The position numbers were made by a program, and so were the translations under genes. Shown here in pieces: positions 2,091-45,426 of a stretch of DNA of 47,048 bases; within the stretch, counting starts at the first letter, position 1, and the number at the start of each line of letters is the position of its first letter. Below the pieces are notes generated by a model. It saw only the letters and a program-made list of their open reading frames with translations, searched no databases and had not been told where the DNA came from. Origin of the DNA: a virus (Duplodnaviria > Heunggongvirae > Uroviricota > Caudoviricetes). The stretch lies in IMG/VR virus record IMGVR_UViG_2563366978_000001, one strand, 5' to 3'.

Positions 2091-2221
2091 GTGACCTACC
2101 TCGCCTGCCCCCTGCAAAGGGCAGAAGTAACGGAGGAAACGCGGCTGCAACCACAGACATCACCGCCCCGACTGCGAGGCTTCCCTTCTCTAAGAAGGGC
2201 ATAAATTCGGGCTGGTCAACC

Positions 2222-3004
2222 CTATTTATTGGTGATTTCTGCTGGCTTTAGCTGCGCGGATAACTGCTCAAGTTTTTGAACTGCCAGTTCAAAATGCGCG
2301 GGTAACGCCTTTTCCAGATCAGAGTTAATATCGGTGATGGGTAAATCACCACACGACATACTCCGCCTACCCCCACGAACAACATCACGCAACAACTCTC
2401 GTTCATACGTGCGCATGTTCCCCAATGCCGACTCAGCAGCCGTCAAAATCCGGCGCAGTTCTGCCGTAATTGCTGGCAAATCATCAACCGTTATGGGGTT
2501 CGGGGATGGATTACGACACGCCCGACGCAAAGCTAACCATACACCGCTAATCCAGGCATTTCGGTACTGAAAACTTTGTGCTATATCGTTAATCAGCCCT
2601 CGCAGATACTCTTTCTGCCTCCAGTTCAACGGCTCCGCTGCTCGCATTGGCTCAGGCTCGATGTAAACGTACTCTCCATTTTTGCGAATAGAGGGCAAGA
2701 CTTCGTTCGTTACCCATTTGCGAAACCGCCAAGCTGTTGTGCCTTGCTTCACCGCGTCACGGCAGCGGAGGATCAGGGTGTATAGACCTGACTCTGAAAT
2801 AATATTTAGCTTTTGCTCTCCGCCAGGGGTGTAACTTAAAGTTACACCCTTTTCATCCTCATCCAGAGACATTAGCGCCTTCCGGGAATTAACGAGTCTT
2901 AAAGCATCACATACATCCTTAGCCACAAACCACGGCTCACCGTTAATCATCACTACACGAACCTGATGCTCTTCCTGAAAGGAAAAGACTGCTAACGCGC
3001 TCAT
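2222..3004 (-). CDS. Phage antirepressor-like protein (BRO-N type N-terminal domain), 260 aa
   Basis: N-terminus FSFQEEHQVRVVMINGEPWFVAKDVCDALRL resembles the BRO-N/antirepressor fold; last gene of a coupled operon. Confidence 0.7.
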   Translation of the reverse strand: MSALAVFSFQEEHQVRVVMINGEPWFVAKDVCDALRLVNSRKALMSLDEDEKGVTLSYTPGGEQKLNIISESGLYTLILRCRDAVKQGTTAWRFRKWVTNEVLPSIRKNGEYVYIEPEPMRAAEPLNWRQKEYLRGLINDIAQSFQYRNAWISGVWLALRRACRNPSPNPITVDDLPAITAELRRILTAAESALGNMRTYERELLRDVVRGGRRSMSCGDLPITDINSDLEKALPAHFELAVQKLEQLSAQLKPAEITNK

Positions 3005-3234
3005 TCAGCCTCCTTATCGCGCAGCAAGTGCGACGAGAGAGACGCAGAATATCCCTGTGCTTCATGCGTTAACTCACACGCAATCTGCAGAAGTTTTCCA
3101 GCCTCTGAGAGGTAAATCGACGCCTCACAACTGGAGACTGTCCGATGGGCTGATGATACGAGCGCATAGACCTGAGCCAGACGTTCATCCAACGATTCCA
3201 GCAGGCCAACAGTGTTCATTTTTACCTGATTCAT
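3001..3234 (-). CDS. Hypothetical 77-aa protein, translationally coupled (ATGA overlap) to the antirepressor gene
   Basis: ORF stop overlaps the downstream start by ATGA at 3001-3004. Confidence 0.55.
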   Translation of the reverse strand: MNQVKMNTVGLLESLDERLAQVYALVSSAHRTVSSCEASIYLSEAGKLLQIACELTHEAQGYSASLSSHLLRDKEAE

Positions 3235-3395
3235 GCAGCCACCTCGCGCACCGGAATACGGGCAGACAATACCAGGACAAACCGGCTGGCGAACTGGCGA
3301 CGAGCTTCCCGTTCAGATGACGCGATAGTGGAAAGATGATGAATGTGGGACTTTTTGTCTGTGCGAACGACTGCCGCAAATTTGAATTTGAACAT
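3231..3395 (-). CDS. Small 54-aa ORF (MFKFKFAAVVRTDKK...), first gene of the antirepressor operon; icd-like position
   Basis: Hand-translated; not in the ORF track (below 60 aa); GGAG RBS 9 nt upstream; ATGA overlap with the next gene at 3231-3234. Confidence 0.45.
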   Translation of the reverse strand: MFKFKFAAVVRTDKKSHIHHLSTIASSEREARRQFASRFVLVLSARIPVREVAA

Positions 3396-3404
3396 GGTAT
3401 GCAC

Positions 3405-3540
3405 TCCGTTTTATTGGTCGTGCTACCACCAGAGTTGCGAATCTCTTTATTGGTGGTAGCCCAGGCGGGGTTCGCAATACCGGTAAACGAAGAAACCGGC
3501 CCGACCGAAGTCAGCCCCACCTGAGCCACCATAATTCGGA
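3405..3540 (-). ncRNA. Candidate C4-type antisense regulatory RNA / structured leader upstream of the antirepressor operon
   Basis: GC-rich inverted repeats (GCTACCACC...GGTGGTAGC) immediately 5' of the first small ORF; by analogy with P1/N15 c4-icd-ant organisation; no homology check possible. Confidence 0.25.
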
Positions 3541-3694
3541 TATGCGCAGGTCTATACACACAAAAAAACACGCTGGCGCGTGTTGTGCGCTTCGTTTTGC
3601 CAGGATTGCGAAGTCCCGACTGCGGGATTTACCGCAGCGAGGTGACTTTACCTCCAAAACGACGCACACGTCAATAATTTGCAAAGACATTTTA

Positions 3695-3727
3695 CCCCGT
3701 GACCAGTCACGGGGACAGGTGTTTTTA
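3695..3727 (+). terminator. Hairpin CCCCGTGACCAGTCACGGGG followed by GTTTTTAT; intrinsic terminator, possibly bidirectional
   Basis: 8-9 bp GC-rich stem, T-tract on plus strand, A-rich on the other side; lies between the lipoprotein gene end and the antirepressor operon. Confidence 0.5.
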
Positions 3728-3775
3728 TAGTTTGCTTGAACAAACGATCAGAACATGAACAATGTTATTGTTCCG

Positions 3776-5598: not shown

Positions 5599-8500
5599 AG
5601 AAAGCGCCCTGCTCTTCGTAGCTGCATGAGCTATTCCCCGTAATGTATTCACGTAACCGCCGCAGCTCATTGCTGGAAAGGTGATCCATGAACTCTGTGA
5701 GGTACAGGGATGCAAACGTCATAGCTATGCTGGCTGATGACCATGATGACATAGTGGCCAACTCCTCACTGGAAAGCGCACTCATCGCCCAGGACTCAGG
5801 TACAGCCACTGGCAACACGGCCAAAGCCTCAGAAATTACTGAATGAGGGGCGTTTTGAACCTGCTCGTTTGTGGATCGCGTTTTATCATCCATATATATA
5901 TTGAGATCCAAATCGCGATCCATTTCGATGGCTGTCTTCTCGGCTTTACGCGTTTTTAGGGTTAGGCCATCTTTCTGACGCTGAACAAGAATATCCAGCA
6001 TAAATGCCGCTGATTCAGGCTCAACAAAACGCAAGGTTGGACGCTTATCGCCGTCTCTGCCGCGACGTTTACCTGTTTTAAGGCCAAGAGAGTCGCAAAT
6101 GTTTTTAAACAACGCTTCCGGCACTTTAGGCTTCCCTTTTGGCGTCATAAAACCACCAATGTGCAGAACGTTATTCAACAGGTCACGGCGTTCGGCTGTC
6201 ATGAGGTTATCTCGAGCGAATTTGAGACGCTCCTGAGTCGCCTCGCCGGTCATAGTCTCAGGGTTGATACCGCAGTCGATAAAGTACTGCCGGAGAGTTG
6301 CTGATTTAAGCGCATAGAAACCGCGCGCCCCGACTTCAACAGTAGGAGTAGCTTTTACCTTGTGATCGATTATTCCAGGGAATTTAGTTTTAAAGACATC
6401 ATCAGCCTGCTCGCGAGTCATCGCGGTCACTACAAAATATTGCCACTGTCCCGCCTGACGGTATGTGTAGGTAAAATTGATGGCTGCTTCTTCCCGGTCG
6501 TAACGACGAGCTGTTACCTCATCTAAAAGCATTGTTTCATAGCGGCGAACTTTGTCTCGAGCACCATCGAAATAGAATTTCAGCGTGCCTTCTTCAACCG
6601 GTAGTTTCAGTTCGTTTTCAATATCCCAGCGGACAAGTTTTGCCTGTTCTTCAAGCGTCAGCGCGCGTTTTTTTAGCAGTTCTTCACGCTCTGATTCTTG
6701 TGGTGTTTCTGTATTGAGGTGCAGATCCAGTGTCTGTTCCCACACAATATCCCGCGCTTCTTTACGCAGATCTTTACCGATATCATTCGCAGCATAATCG
6801 GTGGCCAGCGGTGATACCTTATAACCGTCGCTGTGCATGATGCAGATCATGTTGCTGGCGTAGTCGTTACGCGCAGTCGCTTCAATTGCGGCTGCTTTAA
6901 TTTTCATCCTGGTAAAGTCGGTATTGGCCACCCCCATTGATATACGGTCGCCATCGAAAACGACATCCGTAAGTTCACCGTTCATACCTGCGGTAGCAAG
7001 CAATGCCTGGGCGAATGCTCGTTCTATTTTTTGCGGGTCAGTTTCACGTTTTGCACGAGCTTTATCAAAGCCGATAATAAATTCTTTTGCTGTACGGTCG
7101 CGGCGTAGCATTTGCACTGCATCACTGGGTACAACTTCACCACAGAACATGCCGAAATGACGGTCAAAATGTTTTTGCTCAATCGACACGCCGGATGAAA
7201 TAGACGGGCTATAAATCAGGCCGTCGTATTTTTTGACCATCTTTTTCGGTTGATTGGTAAATGCTTCAACTTCTGGCTCTGGTTTGTTTTTCTGGTTTAC
7301 ACACAGAAATTTCTTACCAGGAAAATGCATTCTCAGGGTGGCTGTCACATCTTCTGCAAAGGTGGAGCTGTCGGTGGCCAACATGATTTTTTCGCCATCC
7401 GATACAGCTTTCACCACCTCGGTCATGATGCGATCTTTTTCTGTATAAAAAACCCGGATTGGCTCACCTGTTTCGCGGTTGCGAACATCAACAGGTAATT
7501 CAATTACGTGGATCTGCAGCCATGCCGGTAAACCTAGTTCTTCACGGCGTTTCATAGCCAGTTCAGCCAGGTCAACCAGCAGATCGTTCGCATCAGCATC
7601 CACCATGATTGGGTGTTGTTCCGTTCTGGCCAGCGCGTCAATTAGCGTATTGAATACAGCCACCGGGTTTTCCATAGCCCGACCGGAAAGAACGGCACGT
7701 AGCCCTTGTGTGGCCTCGTCAAAGCCAAAATAGTCGTGCTGGCGCATCAACGGTTGCCAGCAGTTTTTAACAATCGAGTTTATGCAGATGGTCAGTTTAC
7801 TGGCGTATGGAGCCATTTCCTGATAGCCAGGGTCCTGATAGTGCAGGATATCGGTTTTTACACCTTTTCCTTCTGTCATCATTTCCCACAGGCCACCAAT
7901 AAGGGAAACACGGTGAGCAACAGAGATACCACGTTCTGAGCTATGCATTAAAGGTCGTAACAATCCAGTAGATTTGCCGGAACCCATACCAGCACGAACG
8001 ATGACTATCCCCTGTAGTGATTGCACATACTTCAGGACGTCATCGGTCATTACCGAAGTTTCAAGACGCTTATAGGTGATATGTTGAGGACGTTTATTGG
8101 GATCAGTTATGCGTTCGCTGAATGAGCGCGGAGCCTGGGCAATACGGCACTTTTTATTCAGGCGACGGGCAATGTGGTCTTTTACCGTAGCGCGATAGAT
8201 ATTTTCCAGCCCCATTTCACGCAGAACGATGCAGAACATGTTAAATAAGTCTGACGGACTGTTAGGAACCGGACAGGTTAGCATGCCAATATCCACCGCT
8301 CTCAGCAGCTCTTTGGCAAAAGTACGACGGTTATCCCGCTTAATTGTCTTCAGGCGGTTGAGCGTCAGAGATAGCAAATCAGTGCCGGTTTTCAGGCGGT
8401 TTGCAGTTGCAAACAGTTGACGTGCTGTTTCACGAAGTCCACGCAGTTTGTGCAGGTCGTTGAAGTCACTGCACTCCATTTGCGGATCGTCTTCAAAAGT

Positions 8501-9586: not shown

Positions 9587-9831
9587 TTTTTAGCCATTCC
9601 ATGCGAATTATGTTTTTTCGGGTTGAAAAAATCCGCAGGAGCAGCCACAATAAACGCATCTTGAATTGACGGAATCCGTCGCGTTACTGTGGCTGCTTCC
9701 TGAAAAGGACCCGAGTTTGCCGACTCGGGTTTTTTTTCGTCTTTTTTCTGCTGCTGTAACCTGAGTCAACCCACAGAACATATGCTCTGCATTAAACCAG
9801 ATTTACAGCAAACAATAAACCCCGTATTAAG

Positions 9832-10428
9832 TCATCTACCCTCAACCATGAATGATTTGATCGTTCCGACTATTTGGTGAACAAATTCAAGATCGCTTTT
9901 CCTGAAGATGGCGCGTTGTGAATTTGTTCCGTCCAGATAGTAATTTTCATCATCAAAACGGGCCAGGCGCTGGATGGTGATATTTCCTGCAGTATCACGA
10001 ACCAGAACATCCTCGCCGGGAACCAGTTCCAGCGCAGAATCGACCAGGAGAAAATCGCCTGGCTGATAGTTTCCCTGCGCCAGATTGCTGATAGTTAACG
10101 CATAAACAGTATTGCGCTGGCTGATGAATGGCAGGAATCGCTCAGTATTTGGAACCTGTCCTGGCTTCCACTCTTCATCAGGTCCACTTTCAGTTGTGCC
10201 AATAACAGGAATGCGATCAGGGTCATATTCTGTCCCATACAGCACCCAATGCACTGGCTTGCGTAAGCACTTAGCCAGGGCAATACCTATCTCCAGTGAC
10301 GGCATTACGTCGCCACGTTCTAAGTTTTGGACGCCTGCAATAGAGATATCGACAGCCTCAGCAACTTCTCGCAACGTCAGCTTCATCTCTAAACGGCGTG
10401 CTTTCAGTCGTTCGCCTCGTGTTTTCAT
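9832..10428 (-). CDS. cB: CI-like prophage repressor (N-terminal HTH, C-terminal domain), N15 CB-like
   Basis: HTH motif LTLREVAEAVDISIAGVQNLERG; divergent from a cro-like gene across palindromic operators. Confidence 0.85.
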   Translation of the reverse strand: MKTRGERLKARRLEMKLTLREVAEAVDISIAGVQNLERGDVMPSLEIGIALAKCLRKPVHWVLYGTEYDPDRIPVIGTTESGPDEEWKPGQVPNTERFLPFISQRNTVYALTISNLAQGNYQPGDFLLVDSALELVPGEDVLVRDTAGNITIQRLARFDDENYYLDGTNSQRAIFRKSDLEFVHQIVGTIKSFMVEGR

Positions 10429-10450
10429 AGCTTAATCATAAATGATCTTC

Positions 10451-10492
10451 TTATAGCTGGCTATAAAATTTATTTATTATAGCTGGCTTTAA
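10451..10492. promoter_or_regulatory. Two operator palindromes, TTATAGCTGGCTATAA (10451-10466) and TTATAGCTGGCTTTAA (10477-10492), between cB and cro
   Basis: 7-bp inverted arms with a 2-bp centre, repeated 26 bp apart in the divergent promoter region. Confidence 0.75.
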
Positions 10493-10741
10493 ATGAGATT
10501 TATTGCTTATAATAACCGCATGAAACCAGAAGAACTTATTCGCCACTTTGGCAGTGTAGAAAAAGCAGCGGCTGGGGTAGGTGTAACACCCGGTGCTGTT
10601 TACCAATGGTTAACCGCTGGAGAGATTCCTTCATTGCGGCAAAGTGATATTGAAGTTCGTACTGCTTACAAGCTGAAGAGTGACTTTACAACTCGGCGGG
10701 TAAAGCAGTCGATTAAGGAGAGCCGTAAGCGTGGAGCTTGA
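10493..10741 (+). CDS. cro: Cro-like small DNA-binding regulator (start may be the second ATG at 10520)
   Basis: Small basic ORF divergent from the repressor; HTH-like GVGVTPGAVYQWL. Confidence 0.75.
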   Translation: MRFIAYNNRMKPEELIRHFGSVEKAAAGVGVTPGAVYQWLTAGEIPSLRQSDIEVRTAYKLKSDFTTRRVKQSIKESRKRGA

Positions 10742-11441
10742 GTATATACGCAGCTGCGTCTCCACGGCATTGGCTGATATTCATTATCGCCAGCGTGGCA
10801 TCCTAGAGGTCCAGCTTGAGCAGATGCGTCTAGGCAGATCAGGACGCTTTAACAATAAACCAGTCCGGTCAATCAGTGTAGGTGATGATAACTCATACGA
10901 AGTGTCCGTTCCTGCTGAGCCGGTTAGATTCCACCAGGGGAAAACATTTAAACAATCATCAATGTTGCTCACTGATATTGATTTTCAGAGCGCCAGCTGG
11001 CGCAGGGCTATTGGTCAGTTGAATAACGAGGAATCAGCTTGGCTTTATTATTGCTACGGATGCAAGCCTGATTACAACAATGATGTGATTGTTTGTCAGT
11101 GGTTATGGCTTGATTTTCTGGTTGCTCATTCGGGGGGCGGCTTTAAAAAAATGAAGGCCTCCACGAAAAAAGCCATGCGGAAATTGATTTATTACGCGGC
11201 ACAGCAGGTTAAATCAGAACTTACGTGTGCTGAGGCAGTTGATGAGAGAGAACAGGACAGGCATCTGAGTTTTCTACTGAATATATCTATTGATAGCTGG
11301 AGACAAGATTATAAAGAACGCTGGCTTTTAATTAAGTCGCGATGTCTGAGCTTAAATCGAACTGCATTATTAAATGCGGCGGAGAAGCGCAGTGAAATCA
11401 TCAAACGCCATCGGGCAGGAAGTGCCATTCTGCCTTTGTAA
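10731..11441 (+). CDS. Hypothetical protein, 236 aa, in the position of the N15 Q-like late regulator
   Basis: ORF directly downstream of cro; function inferred from position only. Confidence 0.5.
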   Translation: MELEYIRSCVSTALADIHYRQRGILEVQLEQMRLGRSGRFNNKPVRSISVGDDNSYEVSVPAEPVRFHQGKTFKQSSMLLTDIDFQSASWRRAIGQLNNEESAWLYYCYGCKPDYNNDVIVCQWLWLDFLVAHSGGGFKKMKASTKKAMRKLIYYAAQQVKSELTCAEAVDEREQDRHLSFLLNISIDSWRQDYKERWLLIKSRCLSLNRTALLNAAEKRSEIIKRHRAGSAILPL

Positions 11442-14940: not shown

Positions 14941-15267
14941 ATGGCGCTGACACCGGCAGAACGGCAAAGAAGACGCAGGGAACGGTTGAAGAAGGAAGGA
15001 ACATCAAGACGTGACTGGATTCTGGAACCTGACGAGTTACGTATGTTGGGGGAAATTTGTGTATTGCGTAGACCAGGGCGAGTTCCATATTCAGAGAACG
15101 AAGTCATCGGACTGCTGATCAGGAAAAACTATAAGGAGTTGCAGAAACAGCTATCTACTACTTGTCCGCGATGTGGTCAAAAAATGCCTGTTTCAGAATG
15201 CATTTTTGATGGTGAAGGCTCATGCCACCTTACAACCACGAGGCTGAAACTTGCGCTCAAAGTGTGA
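14941..15267 (+). CDS. Hypothetical protein, 108 aa, with a possible Cys4 zinc ribbon
   Basis: CPRCGQ...C..C pattern; RBS AGGAGG. Confidence 0.5.
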   Translation: MALTPAERQRRRRERLKKEGTSRRDWILEPDELRMLGEICVLRRPGRVPYSENEVIGLLIRKNYKELQKQLSTTCPRCGQKMPVSECIFDGEGSCHLTTTRLKLALKV

Positions 15268-15285
15268 CTGGTCACGGAGGGATAA

Positions 15286-15441
15286 ATGGACAAAAAGGCA
15301 TTGCTTTTTGAAATGATACGAAAACGGAGCGAAAAGAGCTTTTCTGATGGTGGTGATGGGCTTTTGAAAGTGGTTGGGCGAGGCGTAGGAAGGGAACATA
15401 AGTATCAGACTACAAAGATATTTAACCAGTTAATCCATTGA
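15286..15441 (+). CDS. Small ORF, 51 aa (MDKKALLFEMIRKR...)
   Basis: Hand-translated; strong RBS GGAGGG 5 nt upstream of the ATG. Confidence 0.35.
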   Translation: MDKKALLFEMIRKRSEKSFSDGGDGLLKVVGRGVGREHKYQTTKIFNQLIH

Positions 15442-15469
15442 AAGTTGGCTATAAAATTTGAGTTTTACC

Positions 15470-15485
15470 CTGTAATTTTATACAG
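15470..15485. promoter_or_regulatory. LexA (SOS) box CTGTAATTTTATACAG
   Basis: Perfect CTGT-N8-ACAG with AT-rich spacer, about 25 bp upstream of the 15510 ORF. Confidence 0.65.
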
Positions 15486-15509
15486 TATCAAATAACCTTT
15501 TTTAATTAA

Positions 15510-15728
15510 ATGGTATTAGATTCAATGACTGAAGCACCTGTATCAACTCTTGAAGAACTCGGATCAAACCTAAAAGACATCGACGCCGTTTTGGATCTGG
15601 TTAGCGTTGCTCTGGCTTCTCCAGAAGCCAGCTTGCATCTTGGCGAGATTTCACGACTTGTTAGTATGTCGCGGGAGATTGCTCAGAATTGCCAACAAGT
15701 TATTGCTGTTGAGTGTTTGCATCATTGA
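15510..15728 (+). CDS. Small acidic protein, 72 aa; candidate SOS-controlled antirepressor (AntC-like role)
   Basis: ORF immediately downstream of the LexA box; role inferred. Confidence 0.45.
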   Translation: MVLDSMTEAPVSTLEELGSNLKDIDAVLDLVSVALASPEASLHLGEISRLVSMSREIAQNCQQVIAVECLHH

Positions 15729-15771
15729 TACACACCCCGCCCTTCTGGACGGGGTAGCGAAAAGGGTCTAA

Positions 15772-16059
15772 TCAATAGACGGCATTAATATTAATCGTTG
15801 CACCGCATGCTTGGGCATATTTTGATAAAGTTTTCATGCTTGCCCCTAAAGGATTGCTTTCCAGGCGGCTGATAGCTGACGGGCGCAATCCCATTCGTTC
15901 AGCCAGAGCTGACTTCGTTAAACCTGCTCTTTCCCTCATTTCGTATAACATTTCGACCATCTCCAGCTCTTTATCGGCCTCTTCATATCCTTTGATGGCT
16001 TCTGGAGTGTTGAGAAGTTTTTCTTTTACTTCGTTAAACGGGATGCCTTTCGCTTTCAT
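15772..16059 (-). CDS. HTH (XRE-family) antitoxin, HigA-like, 95 aa
   Basis: C-terminal HTH; overlaps the upstream toxin gene at 16059. Confidence 0.7.
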   Translation of the reverse strand: MKAKGIPFNEVKEKLLNTPEAIKGYEEADKELEMVEMLYEMRERAGLTKSALAERMGLRPSAISRLESNPLGASMKTLSKYAQACGATININAVY

Positions 16060-16370
16060 CAGTTCATCTCCTTCAGGCGAGTTCTGGCGATTTCGATAGC
16101 CTTCACCGGTGTTTTCTGTGTCTTTTTTACAAATGCATGCAATAGATAAATTTCGTTACCAGTCGCGTAGGCGTACAGCGTTCTTGCGATGTTTTTATCC
16201 CCTACTCGTAGTTCAAAAAGCCCTCCACCTATTACACGGCTATGGGGCATCTTCAGTTTGTTGCCTTCCTTCTCCAGTCGCTCAATTAATCTGGTCATGC
16301 GACCTCGCAAATCATCTGGTAGTTCAAGCAGTTCATCCAGTGCTGCAGGGTGGGTTATCACGTTAAACAT
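16059..16370 (-). CDS. RelE/ParE-superfamily toxin, HigB-like, 103 aa
   Basis: Small basic protein upstream of the HTH antitoxin in toxin-first (HigBA) order. Confidence 0.65.
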   Translation of the reverse strand: MFNVITHPAALDELLELPDDLRGRMTRLIERLEKEGNKLKMPHSRVIGGGLFELRVGDKNIARTLYAYATGNEIYLLHAFVKKTQKTPVKAIEIARTRLKEMN

Positions 16371-16428
16371 ATTATAGCCTCCATAGCCATAAAATACACC
16401 AAAACAAGAAAAAAGCGCAAATTAAAAA

Positions 16429-16446
16429 TTTCACTAAAAAGTGAAA
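16429..16446. promoter_or_regulatory. Palindrome TTTCAC-TAAAAA-GTGAAA in the toxin-antitoxin promoter region; putative antitoxin operator
   Basis: Inverted repeat about 60 bp upstream of the toxin start codon. Confidence 0.45.
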
Positions 16447-16517
16447 AATAACACTGGATGTGTTCGTTTGGCAGAGTTACAGTTCGTGTCATTGAGGGGC
16501 AATAACCCACTAACTAT

Positions 16518-21455: not shown

Positions 21456-25136
<3,681 letters not shown>

Positions 25137-31268: not shown

Positions 31269-33822
31269 ACCGGTAGGCGATCTGGTCGTTGATTTAAGTC
31301 TGGATGCGGCCAGATTTGACGAGCAGATGGCCAGAGTCAGGCGTCATTTTTCCGGTACGGAAACTGATGCGAAAAAAACAGCGGCAGTCGTTGAACAGTC
31401 GCTGAGCCGACAGGCGCTGGCTGCACAGAAAGCGGGGATTTCCGTCGGGCAGTATAAAGCAGCCATGCGTATGCTGCCTGCACAGTTCACCGACGTGGCC
31501 ACGCAGCTTGCAGGCGGGCAAAGTCCGTGGCTGATCCTGCTGCAACAGGGTGGTCAGGTGAAGGACTCCTTCGGCGGGATGATCCCCATGTTCAGGGGGC
31601 TTGCCGGTGCGATCACCCTGCCGATGGTCGGGGCCACCTCGCTGGCGGTGGCTACAGGGGCGCTGGCGTATGCCTGGTATCAGGGCAACTCAACCCTGTC
31701 CGATTTCAACAAAACGCTGGTCCTTTCCGGTCATCAGTCAGGTCTGACGGCAGATCGTATGCTGGTCCTGTCCAGAGCCGGGCAGGCGGCAGGGCTGACG
31801 TTTAACCAGACCAGCGAGTCACTCAGCGCACTGGTTAAGGCGGGGGTAAGCGGTGAGGCTCAGATTGCGTCCATCAGTCAGAGTGTGGCGCGTTTCTCCT
31901 CTGCATCCGGTGTGGAGGTGGACAAGGTCGCTGAAGCCTTCGGGAAGCTGACCACAGACCCGACGTCGGGGTTGACGGCGATGGCACGCCAGTTCCATAA
32001 CGTGACGGCGGAACAGATTGCGTATGTTGCTCAGTTGCAGCGTTCCGGCGATGAAGCCGGGGCATTGCAGGCGGCGAACGAGGCCGCAACGAAAGGGTTT
32101 GATGACCAGACCCGACGCCTGAAAGAGAACATGGGCACGCTGGAAACCTGGGCAGACAGGACAGCACGGGCATTCAAATCCATGTGGGATGCGGTGCTGG
32201 ATATTGGTCGTCCTGATACCGCTCAGGAGATGCTGATTAAGGCAGAGGCTGCGTTTAAGAAAGCGGACGACATCTGGAATCTGCGCAAGGATGATTATTT
32301 TGTTAACGATGAAGCGCGGGCGCGTTACTGGGATGATCGTGAAAAGGCCCGTCTTGCGCTTGAAGCCGCCCGAAAGAAGGCTGAACAGCAGAGTCAACAG
32401 GACAAAAATGCGCAGCAGCAGAGCGATACCGAAGCGTCACGGCTGAAATATACCGAAGAGGCGCAGAAGGCTTACGAACGACTGCAGACGCCGCTGGAGA
32501 AATATACCGCCCGTCAGGAAGAACTGAATAAGGCACTGAAGGACGGGAAAATTCTGCAGGCAGATTACAACACACTGATGGCGGCGGCGAAAAAGGACTA
32601 TGAAGCGACGCTGAAAAAGCCGAAACAGTCCGGCGTGAAGGTGTCTGCGGGCGATCGTCAGGAAGACAGTGCTCATGCTGCCCTGCTGACGCTTCAGGCT
32701 GAACTCCGGACGCTGGAGAAGCATGCCGGAGCAAATGAGAAAATCAGCCAGCAGCGCCGGGATTTGTGGAAGGCGGAGAGTCAGTTCGCGGTACTGGAGG
32801 AGGCGGCGCAACGTCGCCAGCTGTCTGCACAGGAGAAATCCCTGCTGGCGCATAAAGATGAGACGCTGGAGTACAAACGCCAGCTGGCTGCACTTGGCGA
32901 CAAGGTTACGTATCAGGAGCGCCTGAACGCGCTGGCGCAGCAGGCGGATAAATTCGCACAGCAGCAACGGGCAAAACGGGCCGCCATTGATGCGAAAAGC
33001 CGGGGGCTGACTGACCGGCAGGCAGAACGGGAAGCCACAGAACAGCGCCTGAAGGAACAGTATGGCGATAATCCTCTGGCGCTGAATAACGTCATGTCAG
33101 AGCAGAAAAAGACCTGGGCGGCTGAAGACCTGCTTCGCGGGAACTGGATGGCTGGCCTCAAGTCCGGCTGGAGCGAGTGGAAAGAGAGTGCCACGGACAG
33201 TATGTCGCAGGTTAAAAGTGCAGCCACGCAGACCTTTGATGGTATTGCGCAGAATATGGCGGCGATGCTGACCGGCAGTGAGCAGAACTGGCGCAGCTTC
33301 ACCCGTTCCGTGCTGTCCATGATGACAGAAATTCTGCTTAAGCAGGCAATGGTGGGGATCGTCGGGAGTGTGGGCAGTGTCATTGGCGGTGCTGTCGGTG
33401 GTGACGCATCAGCGTCAGGCGGTACAGCCATTCAGGCCGCTGCGGCGAAATTCCATTTTGCGACCGGGGGATTTACGGGAACCGGCGGCAAATATGAGCC
33501 TGCGGGGATTGTTCACCGCGGTGAATTTGTCTTCACGAAGGAGGCAACCAGCCGGATTGGCGTGGGGAATCTCTACCGGCTGATGCGCGGCTATGCCACC
33601 GGTGGTTATGTCGGTGGCACCGGAAGTCCGGCGCAAATGCGGCGTTCAGAGGGTATCAGGTTTGAGCAGAACAACAACGTGGTGATTAACAACGACGGCA
33701 CGAACGGTCAGATAGGGCCACAGGCGCTGAAGGCTGTTTATGACGTAGCCCGTAAGGGGGCCAGTGATGTTATGCCGGCGCAGATGCGCGATGGTGGTCT
33801 GTTCTCCGGAGGTGGACGATGA
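31261..33822 (+). CDS. H: Tail tape measure protein H
   Basis: 853 aa, lambda gpH-like. Confidence 0.95.
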   Translation: MAEPVGDLVVDLSLDAARFDEQMARVRRHFSGTETDAKKTAAVVEQSLSRQALAAQKAGISVGQYKAAMRMLPAQFTDVATQLAGGQSPWLILLQQGGQVKDSFGGMIPMFRGLAGAITLPMVGATSLAVATGALAYAWYQGNSTLSDFNKTLVLSGHQSGLTADRMLVLSRAGQAAGLTFNQTSESLSALVKAGVSGEAQIASISQSVARFSSASGVEVDKVAEAFGKLTTDPTSGLTAMARQFHNVTAEQIAYVAQLQRSGDEAGALQAANEAATKGFDDQTRRLKENMGTLETWADRTARAFKSMWDAVLDIGRPDTAQEMLIKAEAAFKKADDIWNLRKDDYFVNDEARARYWDDREKARLALEAARKKAEQQSQQDKNAQQQSDTEASRLKYTEEAQKAYERLQTPLEKYTARQEELNKALKDGKILQADYNTLMAAAKKDYEATLKKPKQSGVKVSAGDRQEDSAHAALLTLQAELRTLEKHAGANEKISQQRRDLWKAESQFAVLEEAAQRRQLSAQEKSLLAHKDETLEYKRQLAALGDKVTYQERLNALAQQADKFAQQQRAKRAAIDAKSRGLTDRQAEREATEQRLKEQYGDNPLALNNVMSEQKKTWAAEDLLRGNWMAGLKSGWSEWKESATDSMSQVKSAATQTFDGIAQNMAAMLTGSEQNWRSFTRSVLSMMTEILLKQAMVGIVGSVGSVIGGAVGGDASASGGTAIQAAAAKFHFATGGFTGTGGKYEPAGIVHRGEFVFTKEATSRIGVGNLYRLMRGYATGGYVGGTGSPAQMRRSEGIRFEQNNNVVINNDGTNGQIGPQALKAVYDVARKGASDVMPAQMRDGGLFSGGGR

Positions 33823-43017: not shown

Positions 43018-44058
43018 ATGGCTACATCGACAGTAATTCCTGATGACATCAAAACGCTAAAATCCGATGTTAGCAAATTAAAAAACGATCAAGGAAGCTA
43101 CGTAACAAAATCATATGTAGACAGCAAAAATGAAACCGTTAATGACTGGTCTGCTGCATGGTATCAGCAGGTACTGCCAACTAGCGGAGCTATATTTGGG
43201 CGAAAACTTCGCTCAACTCACAGGACGGCAGGTGTTGAGGATGCGTATTGCGAACTATACCTTAAAAAATGGATAGACAGCCCAGGGAACGCAATGGCGC
43301 GCCTTAACCTGAACGATAACGGTGAAAATATTTGCTGGGATTTTACCAACCTTTACGGCGGAACAATGATCTTCCCTGGTACTTCAGGCTATCTGAAAAT
43401 GGGGAACTGTCTCATGTCGTATAGTGTGCGGGGAAGTAACGCGCTTATTAAGTTTGATTACACCGACACATTACAGATCAAATATGCTAATCATGGGTCA
43501 ACCATGACATTAACCACACAGGGATCCGCTCACGCTGGCGTAACAACTAGACTATGGGGTAATTCTAGCCGTCCGGTTGTTTATGAAGTTGGCGTAGATG
43601 AGGCTCTGTATATGTTCTACGCACAGAAAACTACCAGCAATACCTACGAATTAACGGTTAACGGCGCGTGCAATGCAAGTGCATTTAATCAAGGCTCTGA
43701 CCGGGATCTGAAAGACAATATTCAGGTGATCGATAATGCAACCGACCGCATTCGTAAAATGAACGGCTATACATACACGCTTAAAGAAAACGGTATGCCT
43801 TACGCTGGTGTTATTGCACAAGAAACCCTGGAAGCCATCCCCGAAGCCGTAGGGTCTATGATGAAATATCCAGACGGCGGGAGTGGATTAGATGGAGAAG
43901 AAGGTGAACGGTATTACACTGTAGATTATTCTGGTGTTACTGGCTTGCTTGTTCAGGTAGCCAGAGAGTCAGACGACAGAATAACAGCACTGGAAGAAGA
44001 AAACGCAGAATTAAAACAAAGATTATCTGCAATTGAGGCGGCGCTTGCGTCTAAATAA
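43018..44058 (+). CDS. Tail fibre/spike-like protein with C-terminal intramolecular chaperone (S74-type) domain
   Basis: C-terminal ...SDRDLKDNIQVIDNATDRIRKMNGYTY... and terminal coiled coil typical of self-cleaving fibre chaperone domains. Confidence 0.6.
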   Translation: MATSTVIPDDIKTLKSDVSKLKNDQGSYVTKSYVDSKNETVNDWSAAWYQQVLPTSGAIFGRKLRSTHRTAGVEDAYCELYLKKWIDSPGNAMARLNLNDNGENICWDFTNLYGGTMIFPGTSGYLKMGNCLMSYSVRGSNALIKFDYTDTLQIKYANHGSTMTLTTQGSAHAGVTTRLWGNSSRPVVYEVGVDEALYMFYAQKTTSNTYELTVNGACNASAFNQGSDRDLKDNIQVIDNATDRIRKMNGYTYTLKENGMPYAGVIAQETLEAIPEAVGSMMKYPDGGSGLDGEEGERYYTVDYSGVTGLLVQVARESDDRITALEEENAELKQRLSAIEAALASK

Positions 44059-44436: not shown

Positions 44437-45426
44437 TTAGTTATTTTTTACATCGGAAGAATTTCCAAACGCCTCCTCAAGAATAGATTCAATTTTACTC
44501 ATTAGGTGCGATGGTATTTTTCTGTTATCTAATTTTAATGTTGTGAAATTTTTCCCATATTTCGCCACAACACCGTCTCCATATTTCTTTTCCCTTTTCT
44601 CTCCATGTGAATTGTTTTTCTCAACAATAATGAAATCATGAAGAGCCTGTATTATTCTTTGCGCATCTAAACTTTCACCTGATTTTTTCATCCTCAGCAA
44701 CTGAGATGCAGCATTTTTCATGGCTGCTTCCTGTCCCTGATATGCTTTAAAAAGAGCGTCTCCTGCTCTGGCTGATAACTCACCAGGATGGTTAAATATT
44801 GCCAATATATCTTTAGGTAAACCGGCTGTATTAATACATCGGCTGATAATATTTCTATCCACGCCTTCGGCTTCAGCTAAAGATTTTACGTTACCGTCAA
44901 ATTCATGGAGCCTTCGCAGGTATCTTTTCCCCCTTTCATAGGCGCTGATAGGTCTATAGTCGTTGCCTATCTGCGATAACCATTGCATTTGTTCATCATC
45001 TAAATCGCCAATAAGAACACGATAATCGCATCCAGTTATAATGGCTGCTTTACGTCTTCGAGAACCATCAGCTACTTCAACAATACCTGACACTTTTCTT
45101 GCGAAAGCCGGATTTTGTTGCCCAGAAGTTAGAAAAGATGGAATTAAATCAGCTAGAGAAGATTCATTTAATAAATCTTGATCACGCTCATTACCTAGCC
45201 ATACCATTGTTGCCATTTCTACTTTATCTGCGGGGATCGTTTCTAACTTAAAGTTAACATTACGTCCGCATACTGGCAAAGTTATGCTATTACCGGTTAA
45301 TGAACTCAGTTGACGTTTTAAATCACCAACCATAGGTGATACCGGCTGATGTTCAGGTGCATGATGATTATTACTCATAATGCGATTAATATCCGGAGCA
45401 TTTTTTAGAAGAGAGCGTTGTTTCAT
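44437..45426 (-). CDS. sopB: Partition protein SopB (ParB family)
   Basis: 329 aa; conserved block ITLPVCGR...SGNERDQ...DGSRRRKAA...GNDYRP as in F SopB. Confidence 0.95.
   Translation of the reverse strand: MKQRSLLKNAPDINRIMSNNHHAPEHQPVSPMVGDLKRQLSSLTGNSITLPVCGRNVNFKLETIPADKVEMATMVWLGNERDQDLLNESSLADLIPSFLTSGQQNPAFARKVSGIVEVADGSRRRKAAIITGCDYRVLIGDLDDEQMQWLSQIGNDYRPISAYERGKRYLRRLHEFDGNVKSLAEAEGVDRNIISRCINTAGLPKDILAIFNHPGELSARAGDALFKAYQGQEAAMKNAASQLLRMKKSGESLDAQRIIQALHDFIIVEKNNSHGEKREKKYGDGVVAKYGKNFTTLKLDNRKIPSHLMSKIESILEEAFGNSSDVKNN

Follow-up and report, generated by a model that had tools for sequence, protein, structure and literature searches.

An N15 antC ortholog behind a conserved LexA box: very probably what sets off induction in an N15-like linear plasmid prophage

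How does a linear plasmid prophage of the N15 type leave lysogeny, and does a small open reading frame (ORF) behind a LexA box give the signal? The DNA that we analyse, a stretch of 47,048 nucleotides (IMG/VR record IMGVR_UViG_2563366978_000001, Caudoviricetes; hereafter the window), raises this question at an ATG-initiated ORF of 72 aa (15510-15728), which follows the SOS box CTGTAATTTTATACAG (CTGT-N8-ACAG, 15470-15485). An earlier note on this DNA placed both features at the right coordinates, and proposed a candidate SOS-triggered antirepressor under the dual control of LexA and the prophage repressor CB. Our answer is that the locus is very probably the induction trigger of the prophage, an ortholog of N15 antC whose sigma-70 promoter would be blocked by host LexA. 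Established here are the orthology and synteny of the gene, the purifying selection on it, the conservation of box and promoter, and the degeneracy of the protease domain in CB; LexA control and the action of AntC against CB are taken from published work on N15.

The element itself has to be placed before the locus can be read. The earlier note argues from N15; the window is a relative of that phage, an N15-like phage-plasmid (Ravinvirus type) related to the linear plasmid prophage, with about 92% identity to YDC107_1 and PhiR46_1 and a nucleotide identity to N15 of only about 71%, over part of the small ORF. The gene order follows that of N15, with repA, cB, cro, Q and the exonuclease gene leading on to gp46, gp47 and the small ORF, and with a convergent toxin-antitoxin pair, gp50, gp51, the methylase, the lysis genes and the terminase after it. 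The telN gene and the immA antirepressor operon are likewise present. The small ORF is not part of immB but sits between the homolog of gene 47 and the convergent toxin-antitoxin pair, and the order gp46, gp47, antC, toxin-antitoxin pair is kept in elements from E. coli, Enterobacter, Citrobacter and Klebsiella. Among 5,426 complete E. coli genomes the antC promoter segment is found in 11, every time on plasmids.

The two neighbours of the ORF show variation of their own. The gp47 homolog (15286-15441) is only 51 aa long in the window, having lost 29 internal in-frame residues (FVFASMLAFDVGLN...LEK) relative to N15 gp47, phiKO2 Gp46 and the YDC107_1 protein, and in some window-type plasmids this remnant is further altered and carries no annotation. 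In the Citrobacter and E. asburiae relatives the toxin-antitoxin slot holds a HicA/HicB-type pair instead, and the E. asburiae slot contains a TnpB insertion as well (locus L011, 7064-8449).

To which gene family does the small ORF belong? Its product is 57% identical over 68 residues (BLASTP, E = 9e-27) to that of an ORF which N15 carries, without annotation, between its genes 47 and 48, the conserved motifs being DAVLD...SPEASLH...MSR, and the homology is also found when the window ORF is compared with N15 by tblastn (E = 2e-17). The homologous N15 sequence sits in an unannotated gap of 380 bp that runs from gene 47 to gene 48, and the N15 ORF is preceded by CTGTGTTTATATACAG at the same distance as in the window. 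A scan of the whole N15 genome gives two strong LexA boxes only, one before the umuD-like gene 26 and one before this ORF, which argues that the ORF between genes 47 and 48 is the LexA-controlled antC. As an observation apart, the box of gene 26 (TACTGTATAAAAAAACAGTT, just upstream of the gene at 21658-21677 of N15 locus L136) is a very good one, and the window has no second box comparable to it. PMC4488713, PMC3121763 and PMC11652158 present antC as a LexA-controlled gene outside immA and immB that starts induction through a product directed against the prophage repressor, and they credit its description to Mardanov and Ravin (2007, J Bacteriol 189:6333). These papers, together with PMC10432266, agree with the statement in the earlier note that N15 induces through a LexA-controlled antirepressor and leaves its repressor uncleaved. 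On the LexA-box argument and these secondary citations, the N15 ORF is antC; and as judged from the 57% identity, the synteny and the conserved LexA box, the window ORF is its ortholog, which bears out the earlier note's candidate.

The family to which the two proteins belong is narrow. The tblastn search places antC in 13 records of phages and 213 of plasmids (Klebsiella 176, Escherichia 27, Enterobacter 7, Citrobacter 2 and Shigella 1), and it is often missing from the annotation of the records that carry it. Searched exhaustively with HMMER, 1.8 billion representatives yield no more than 4 clusters at 50% identity, and AntC would therefore be specific to the N15-like phage group. A peptide-pattern scan of genome contigs with the window protein as the single query found no relatives, and Pfam gives no family at E <= 0.01 for AntC, nor for gp46 or gp47. 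In PHROGs, AntC falls into phrog_6301 (function unknown) with a weak match to phrog_10889, "anti-repressor".

That the ORF is a real gene is indicated by purifying selection, with dN/dS between 0.17 and 0.34 against seven relatives, although synonymous sites are near saturation in the distant pairs. The AlphaFold2 monomer model, built on a shallow alignment, is a two-helix hairpin (helices 4-30 and 33-66, pLDDT 86.5) that places the invariant SPEASL motif at the predicted turn. A PDB sequence search and a Foldseek search against the PDB return generic helical-hairpin matches only (E > 1), so that no function can be drawn from the fold.

Where the protein begins can be decided by comparison of the relatives. 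The first ATG, taken as the start in the earlier note, reads ATG GTA TGA in YDC107_1, PhiR46_1 and pS159-3, with a stop directly after two codons, and is CTG in phiKO2; the second ATG (15525) is found in every relative compared and is where the PGAP and GenBank annotations of relatives start the gene. The true start is thus probably the second ATG, which gives a product of 67 aa, and the start at 15510 very probably has to be given up. No clear Shine-Dalgarno sequence precedes either ATG. The ATGGTA that lies 15 nt before the presumed start (window 15510-15518) is kept in all relatives but phiKO2, and in the three relatives with the stop it amounts to a mini-ORF of two codons.

We turn to the LexA box. 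The window box is a perfect CTGT-N8-ACAG with a spacer consisting entirely of A and T. Such a core by itself is not significant in 47 kb: the window has two against an expectation of 0.54, and two or more turn up in 9 of 100 shuffles. The site before antC is nevertheless clearly real, as seen from its rank in the window and from its conservation. On a heterology index that is rough and approximate, built from 19 E. coli SOS boxes (the training sites score 0.5-9.5), the box before antC scores 5.4, the best value for any 20-mer of the window, and the N15 antC box scores 3.3. The next-best site of the window, TTCTGTATAAAAAACCCGGA at 7439 inside repA, has a rough index of 9.2, and the other perfect core (at 33313, spacer CCATGATG) lies above 15 and is a poor LexA site. 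A scan with the 20-mer LexA consensus at up to 3 mismatches gave no match, the window site having 5 mismatches in its flanks and spacer.

The box is perfect, and at the same place and distance before antC, in 13 of 14 related loci, and in each of these 13 loci (about 6-17 kb) it is the sole perfect CTGT-N8-ACAG. In phiKO2 (locus L014, about 6962-6977) the left arm reads ATGT in place of CTGT, and the only perfect core of that locus lies elsewhere; LexA control may be weaker in this lineage. A scan of viral contigs with the 19-nt box pattern gives at least 120 matches, mostly unrelated phage LexA boxes before genes, and 6 antC loci are among the matches listed. When 11 distinct sequences are anchored on the box, TTTG.G is invariant 8-13 nt upstream of it, and so is TGT..TT.TATACAGTAT.A.

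Conservation alone points to TTGAGT-17-TACAGT as the putative antC promoter. Its hexamers match the consensus at 8 of 12 positions, and a consensus scan for promoters and terminators over 15200-16500 with a threshold of 9 of 12 called none. The box covers the -10 TACAGT and lies downstream of the TTG of the -35; with either choice of -10 in Table 1 the box lies over the core promoter, which LexA would occlude. A second promoter overlapped by CB, with TATAAA or TAAAAT of the CB-like element as its -10, was considered and dropped, there being no acceptable -35 at 16-18 bp. Past the end of the gene, the hairpin at 15734..15755 (-14.1 kcal/mol, z = -0.82) is no better than those of shuffled sequence and is rejected as a terminator; the N15 hairpin at the equivalent position is much stronger.

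Table 1. Features of the antC locus and of the cB region, in window coordinates
Feature	Position	Strand	Remarks
antC ortholog, 67 aa from the second ATG, MTEAPVSTLEEL...	15525..15728 (stop included)	+	N15 homology, synteny, dN/dS
Upstream in-frame ATG and four codons, ATGGTATTAGATTCA	15510..15524	+	most likely 5' leader, noncoding
LexA (SOS) box 20-mer, CCCTGTAATTTTATACAGTA	15468..15487 (core 15470-15485)	.	conserved in 13/14 relatives; rough index 5.4
Putative -35 hexamer, TTGAGT	15458..15463	+	TTTG.G invariant in 11 relatives; 17 bp before TACAGT
Putative -10 hexamer, TACAGT	15481..15486	+	in right arm of LexA box; invariant in all relatives
Alternative -10, TATCAA	15486-15491	+	without conserved -35
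CB-operator-like 16-mer, TGAAAGTTGGCTATAA, function doubtful	15439..15454	.	right half good, left half poor
Weak hairpin, no U-tract	15734..15755	+	past antC stop, between the convergent antC and antitoxin genes
HTH_3 antitoxin	15772-16059	-	directly downstream of antC, convergent
Gp49/RelE-ParE-like toxin, PF05973	16059-16370	-	partner of the HTH_3 antitoxin
cB prophage repressor, presumed AntC target	9832..10428	-	HTH domain and degenerate S24-like C-terminal domain
OR3, OR2, OR1	10451..10515 (10451-10466, 10477-10492, 10500-10515)	.	between cB and cro; homologous to footprinted N15 operators

The presumed target of AntC is the CB repressor, and the question is whether CB could respond to DNA damage by itself. 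The window CB matches HTH_3 (E = 3e-11) and, under the curated cut-off, Peptidase_S24 (E = 2e-4). The residues that correspond to Ser119 and Lys156 of LexA are Ala and Gln in CB, in a pairwise alignment that is weak (E = 0.23) and consistent at the level of the motifs. The CB proteins of N15 and phiKO2 are reported to have neither the cleavage site nor the Ser/Lys residues (PMC4997575), and gels show that the N15 repressor escapes proteolysis in the SOS response (PMC10432266). With a cognate repressor that lacks the residues for self-cleavage, an antirepressor is the expected route of induction.

The OR3 palindrome TTATAGCTGGCTATAA (10451-10466) is identical to the footprinted OR3 of N15 and is common to all 14 elements examined. 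In the gel shifts with phiKO2 CB, OR3 half-sites were not bound and the minimum target was 18 bp; all bound CB operators of the group contain the motif T-A-(N)10-T-A, and CB is described as a tetramer-forming protein of rather low binding specificity (PMC4997575). An operator-like site, TTATAGTTTGCTTGAA, lies at window 3725-3740, upstream of the immA antirepressor operon, and its N15 counterpart TTATAGTTTGCTTTAC (locus L136, 28576-28591) ranks fourth in the N15 genome by the CB matrix described below, above OR1 and OL1. This site is probably a real CB operator that carries no annotation in the records, and with its conservation in N15 it is a candidate precedent for CB at an antirepressor promoter. 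Ravin et al. are said to have described, in 1999, that CB acts at the promoter of the immA antirepressor operon.

With these components the induction of the prophage can be pictured. In a lysogen, LexA on the box would cover the spacer and the -10 of TTGAGT-17-TACAGT, and antC would be silent. After DNA damage, active RecA would lead LexA to cleave itself, and antC would be transcribed. The predicted helical-hairpin protein of 67 aa, made from the ATG at 15525, is expected to bind CB, which would be unable to cleave itself in the absence of the Ser/Lys dyad. CB would then leave OR and OL, and the derepression of cro, Q and the replication genes would bring about lytic growth.

The antC segment and the repressor region have had different histories. 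Relative to PhiR46_1 and YDC107_1, the antC segment (window 15286-15800) has a nucleotide identity of about 84% and its surroundings 92-99.8%, and the cB-cro region (9800-10760) is 97-99.8% identical. In the same comparison AntC has 76% amino-acid identity (24% of the residues differ) and the cB genes are near-identical. This greater divergence of the antC segment suggests mosaicism, in which the antirepressor allele was exchanged, or diverged, independently of the target repressor.

Does CB act at the antC promoter as well? The earlier note pointed out that the 14-mer TGGCTATAAAATTT (15446-15459) exactly repeats the right half of the cB operator together with its flank, and this is correct; the 14-mer recurs exactly once, at 10458-10471, as the right half of OR3 with 5 flanking bases. 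With a symmetrised matrix made from five footprinted N15 operators, the 16-mer at 15439-15454 scores 13.7 and ranks 7 of 47,033, above the operator OL1 (13.0); OR3, OR2, OR1, the OL site at 9803 and two intragenic sites rank higher. A random window should contain about 0.34 sites of this score by chance, and a stretch of 60 positions with the AT-rich composition of the neighbourhood about 0.009. The 16-mer matches OR3 at 13 of 16 positions, with the similarity all in the right half; in the left half it has TGAAAG for TTATAG and departs from the five footprinted operators at two positions where these do not vary. The candidate reads G-A-(N)10-T-A, and a second functional half-site is missing from it. 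It lies upstream of the -35 hexamer, 3 bp short of it, and is centred near -46. The sequence at issue between the window-type and YDC107-type antC promoter alleles is GGCTATAA. Binding of Cro to this element was rejected, the Cro of this group binding the complete OR3 only (PMC4997575). The intragenic 16-mers of equal score lie at 43245-43260 (GTATTGCGAACTATAC) and 45248-45263 (TTAAAGTTAACATTAC). The latter falls in ORF 44437-45426, which we provisionally take to be the partition gene sopB. Both are probably false positives, and their presence puts the true false-positive rate above that of the random model.

Dual control, in which CB bound at 15439-15454 beside the -35 would repress or modulate antC together with LexA, is in our judgement unlikely. 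The antirepressor would in that case be kept shut by the SOS repressor of the host and by its own target alike. In favour of the idea, the score exceeds that of an accepted operator and is rare by chance, and over about 180 kb of related loci scores of at least 12 fall almost exclusively on the known OR and OL operators; against it, equal scores are found inside two genes of the window. CB is reported to be of rather low specificity and to form tetramers, but the left half breaks two invariant positions, and half-sites were left unbound in vitro, where at least 18 bp were needed (PMC4997575). The imperfect site upstream of the immA operon offers a parallel that is conserved in N15, whereas the site at antC is confined to the window subclade: it is present in 4 of 4 members scored with the matrix, with the same sequence in three further window-type plasmids, and missing from YDC107_1, PhiR46_1, pS159-3, N15 and the Enterobacter, Citrobacter and phiKO2 elements, although OR3 is the same in each of these. 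In these other elements the best matrix scores near antC are 1-11 and fall on the LexA box. The position of the site, upstream of the -35, is moreover no classical one for repression. Within the subclade, wherever this stretch departs from the YDC107-type sequence it shifts toward OR3, the plasmid LR883007 carries AGCTGGCTATAAAATTT / TGAAAGCTGGCTATAA, 17 nt that reproduce OR3 and flank exactly, and the promoter region, site included, is invariant in window-type plasmids despite 6 differing positions in the 51 nt upstream. It is conceivable, if doubtful, that in this subclade of E. coli N15-like plasmid prophages the antC promoter has gained a weak CB site abutting the -35, by which CB would tune its own antirepressor, perhaps through looping with OR and OL; such a site could have arisen by point changes toward OR3 or by copying of a 17-nt patch from OR3.

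The same facts can be read in the opposite sense, and we hold it likely that the identity of the 14-mer with OR3 has no regulatory role and reflects common descent, AT-rich promoter-like sequence or a short recombination patch in one subclade, antC being controlled by LexA only, as in N15. Other lineages have related sequences that are not operators at the same position (TGGCTGTAT, TGGTTGTAT and CAGCTATAT), so much of the match to OR3 may be ancestral and not a gained operator; the TTT of the flank is part of the -35 region, which is invariant; and the drop to 84% identity between the surroundings at 92-99.8% fits a mosaic exchange with respect to the nearest phages. This reading has to accept a statistically rare site, substitutions that all run toward OR3, and the invariance in the subclade, although the invariant stretch also covers the promoter and the LexA box. 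A much more sceptical view would dismiss the locus altogether as a chance CTGT-N8-ACAG beside a noncoding open frame, in keeping with the frequency of such cores in shuffled windows, the lack of a Pfam match for the ORF and the failure of the consensus scan to call a promoter. This is very improbable and is refuted by the comparative data: box, spacing and ORF are conserved across four genera, the dN/dS values are those given above, the ORF has its homolog in N15, and the structure model is a confident one. For the 16-mer, we judge the evidence against a CB-site function to be stronger than the evidence for it. The poor left half, the unbound half-sites (PMC4997575), the absence from relatives and the location upstream of the -35 speak against the dual LexA and CB control of the earlier note, and the preferred reading of the locus is antC under LexA.

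What does the identification offer? The gene is labelled "hypothetical protein", or is not called, in N15 (GenBank and RefSeq) and in the majority of the 13 phage and 213 plasmid records that contain it. It probably acts as the SOS trigger in a common group of phage-plasmids of Enterobacteriaceae, and some members of this group carry resistance genes. With antC named and its start codon fixed, it becomes plain which small gene is to be deleted or expressed for the control of induction. If the CB site of the subclade were true, it would add to SOS induction a repressor-dependent threshold or a feedback loop that N15 lacks.

Among known systems, the antirepressors 186 Tum and GfoA/GftA of the Gifsy prophages of Salmonella, which LexA represses directly, resemble the locus in plan, each being a small protein made from outside the immunity region that binds a non-cleavable prophage repressor and inactivates it (PMC3121763), as AntC is expected to do. 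They are analogues and not relatives, with no detectable sequence relationship; the DinI domain that is present in Tum does not appear in window AntC, either among Pfam families at E <= 0.01 or as a PDB sequence or fold match. The immA operon (antA/antB/icd, window about 2200-3770), controlled in N15 by the small CA RNA, is a second antirepressor system. Its AntA, a large protein of the BRO family, is unrelated to AntC, and its control is by RNA-mediated termination and not by LexA. The closest comparison is with N15 AntC itself, with which the window locus shares a protein of 57% identity, the location after gene 47 and before the gene 48/49 toxin-antitoxin pair, the position of the LexA box over the promoter, a CB of the non-cleavable type and an identical OR3. 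The two differ in 43% of the residues, the C-terminal tail among them, in the spacer of the box (AATTTTAT in the window, GTTTATAT in N15), in the 29 residues lost from window gp47, and in the CB-half-site-like element beside the -35, which is absent from N15. The window antC is thus an ordinary, uncharacterised member of the N15 AntC family, whose mechanism has been known since 2007.
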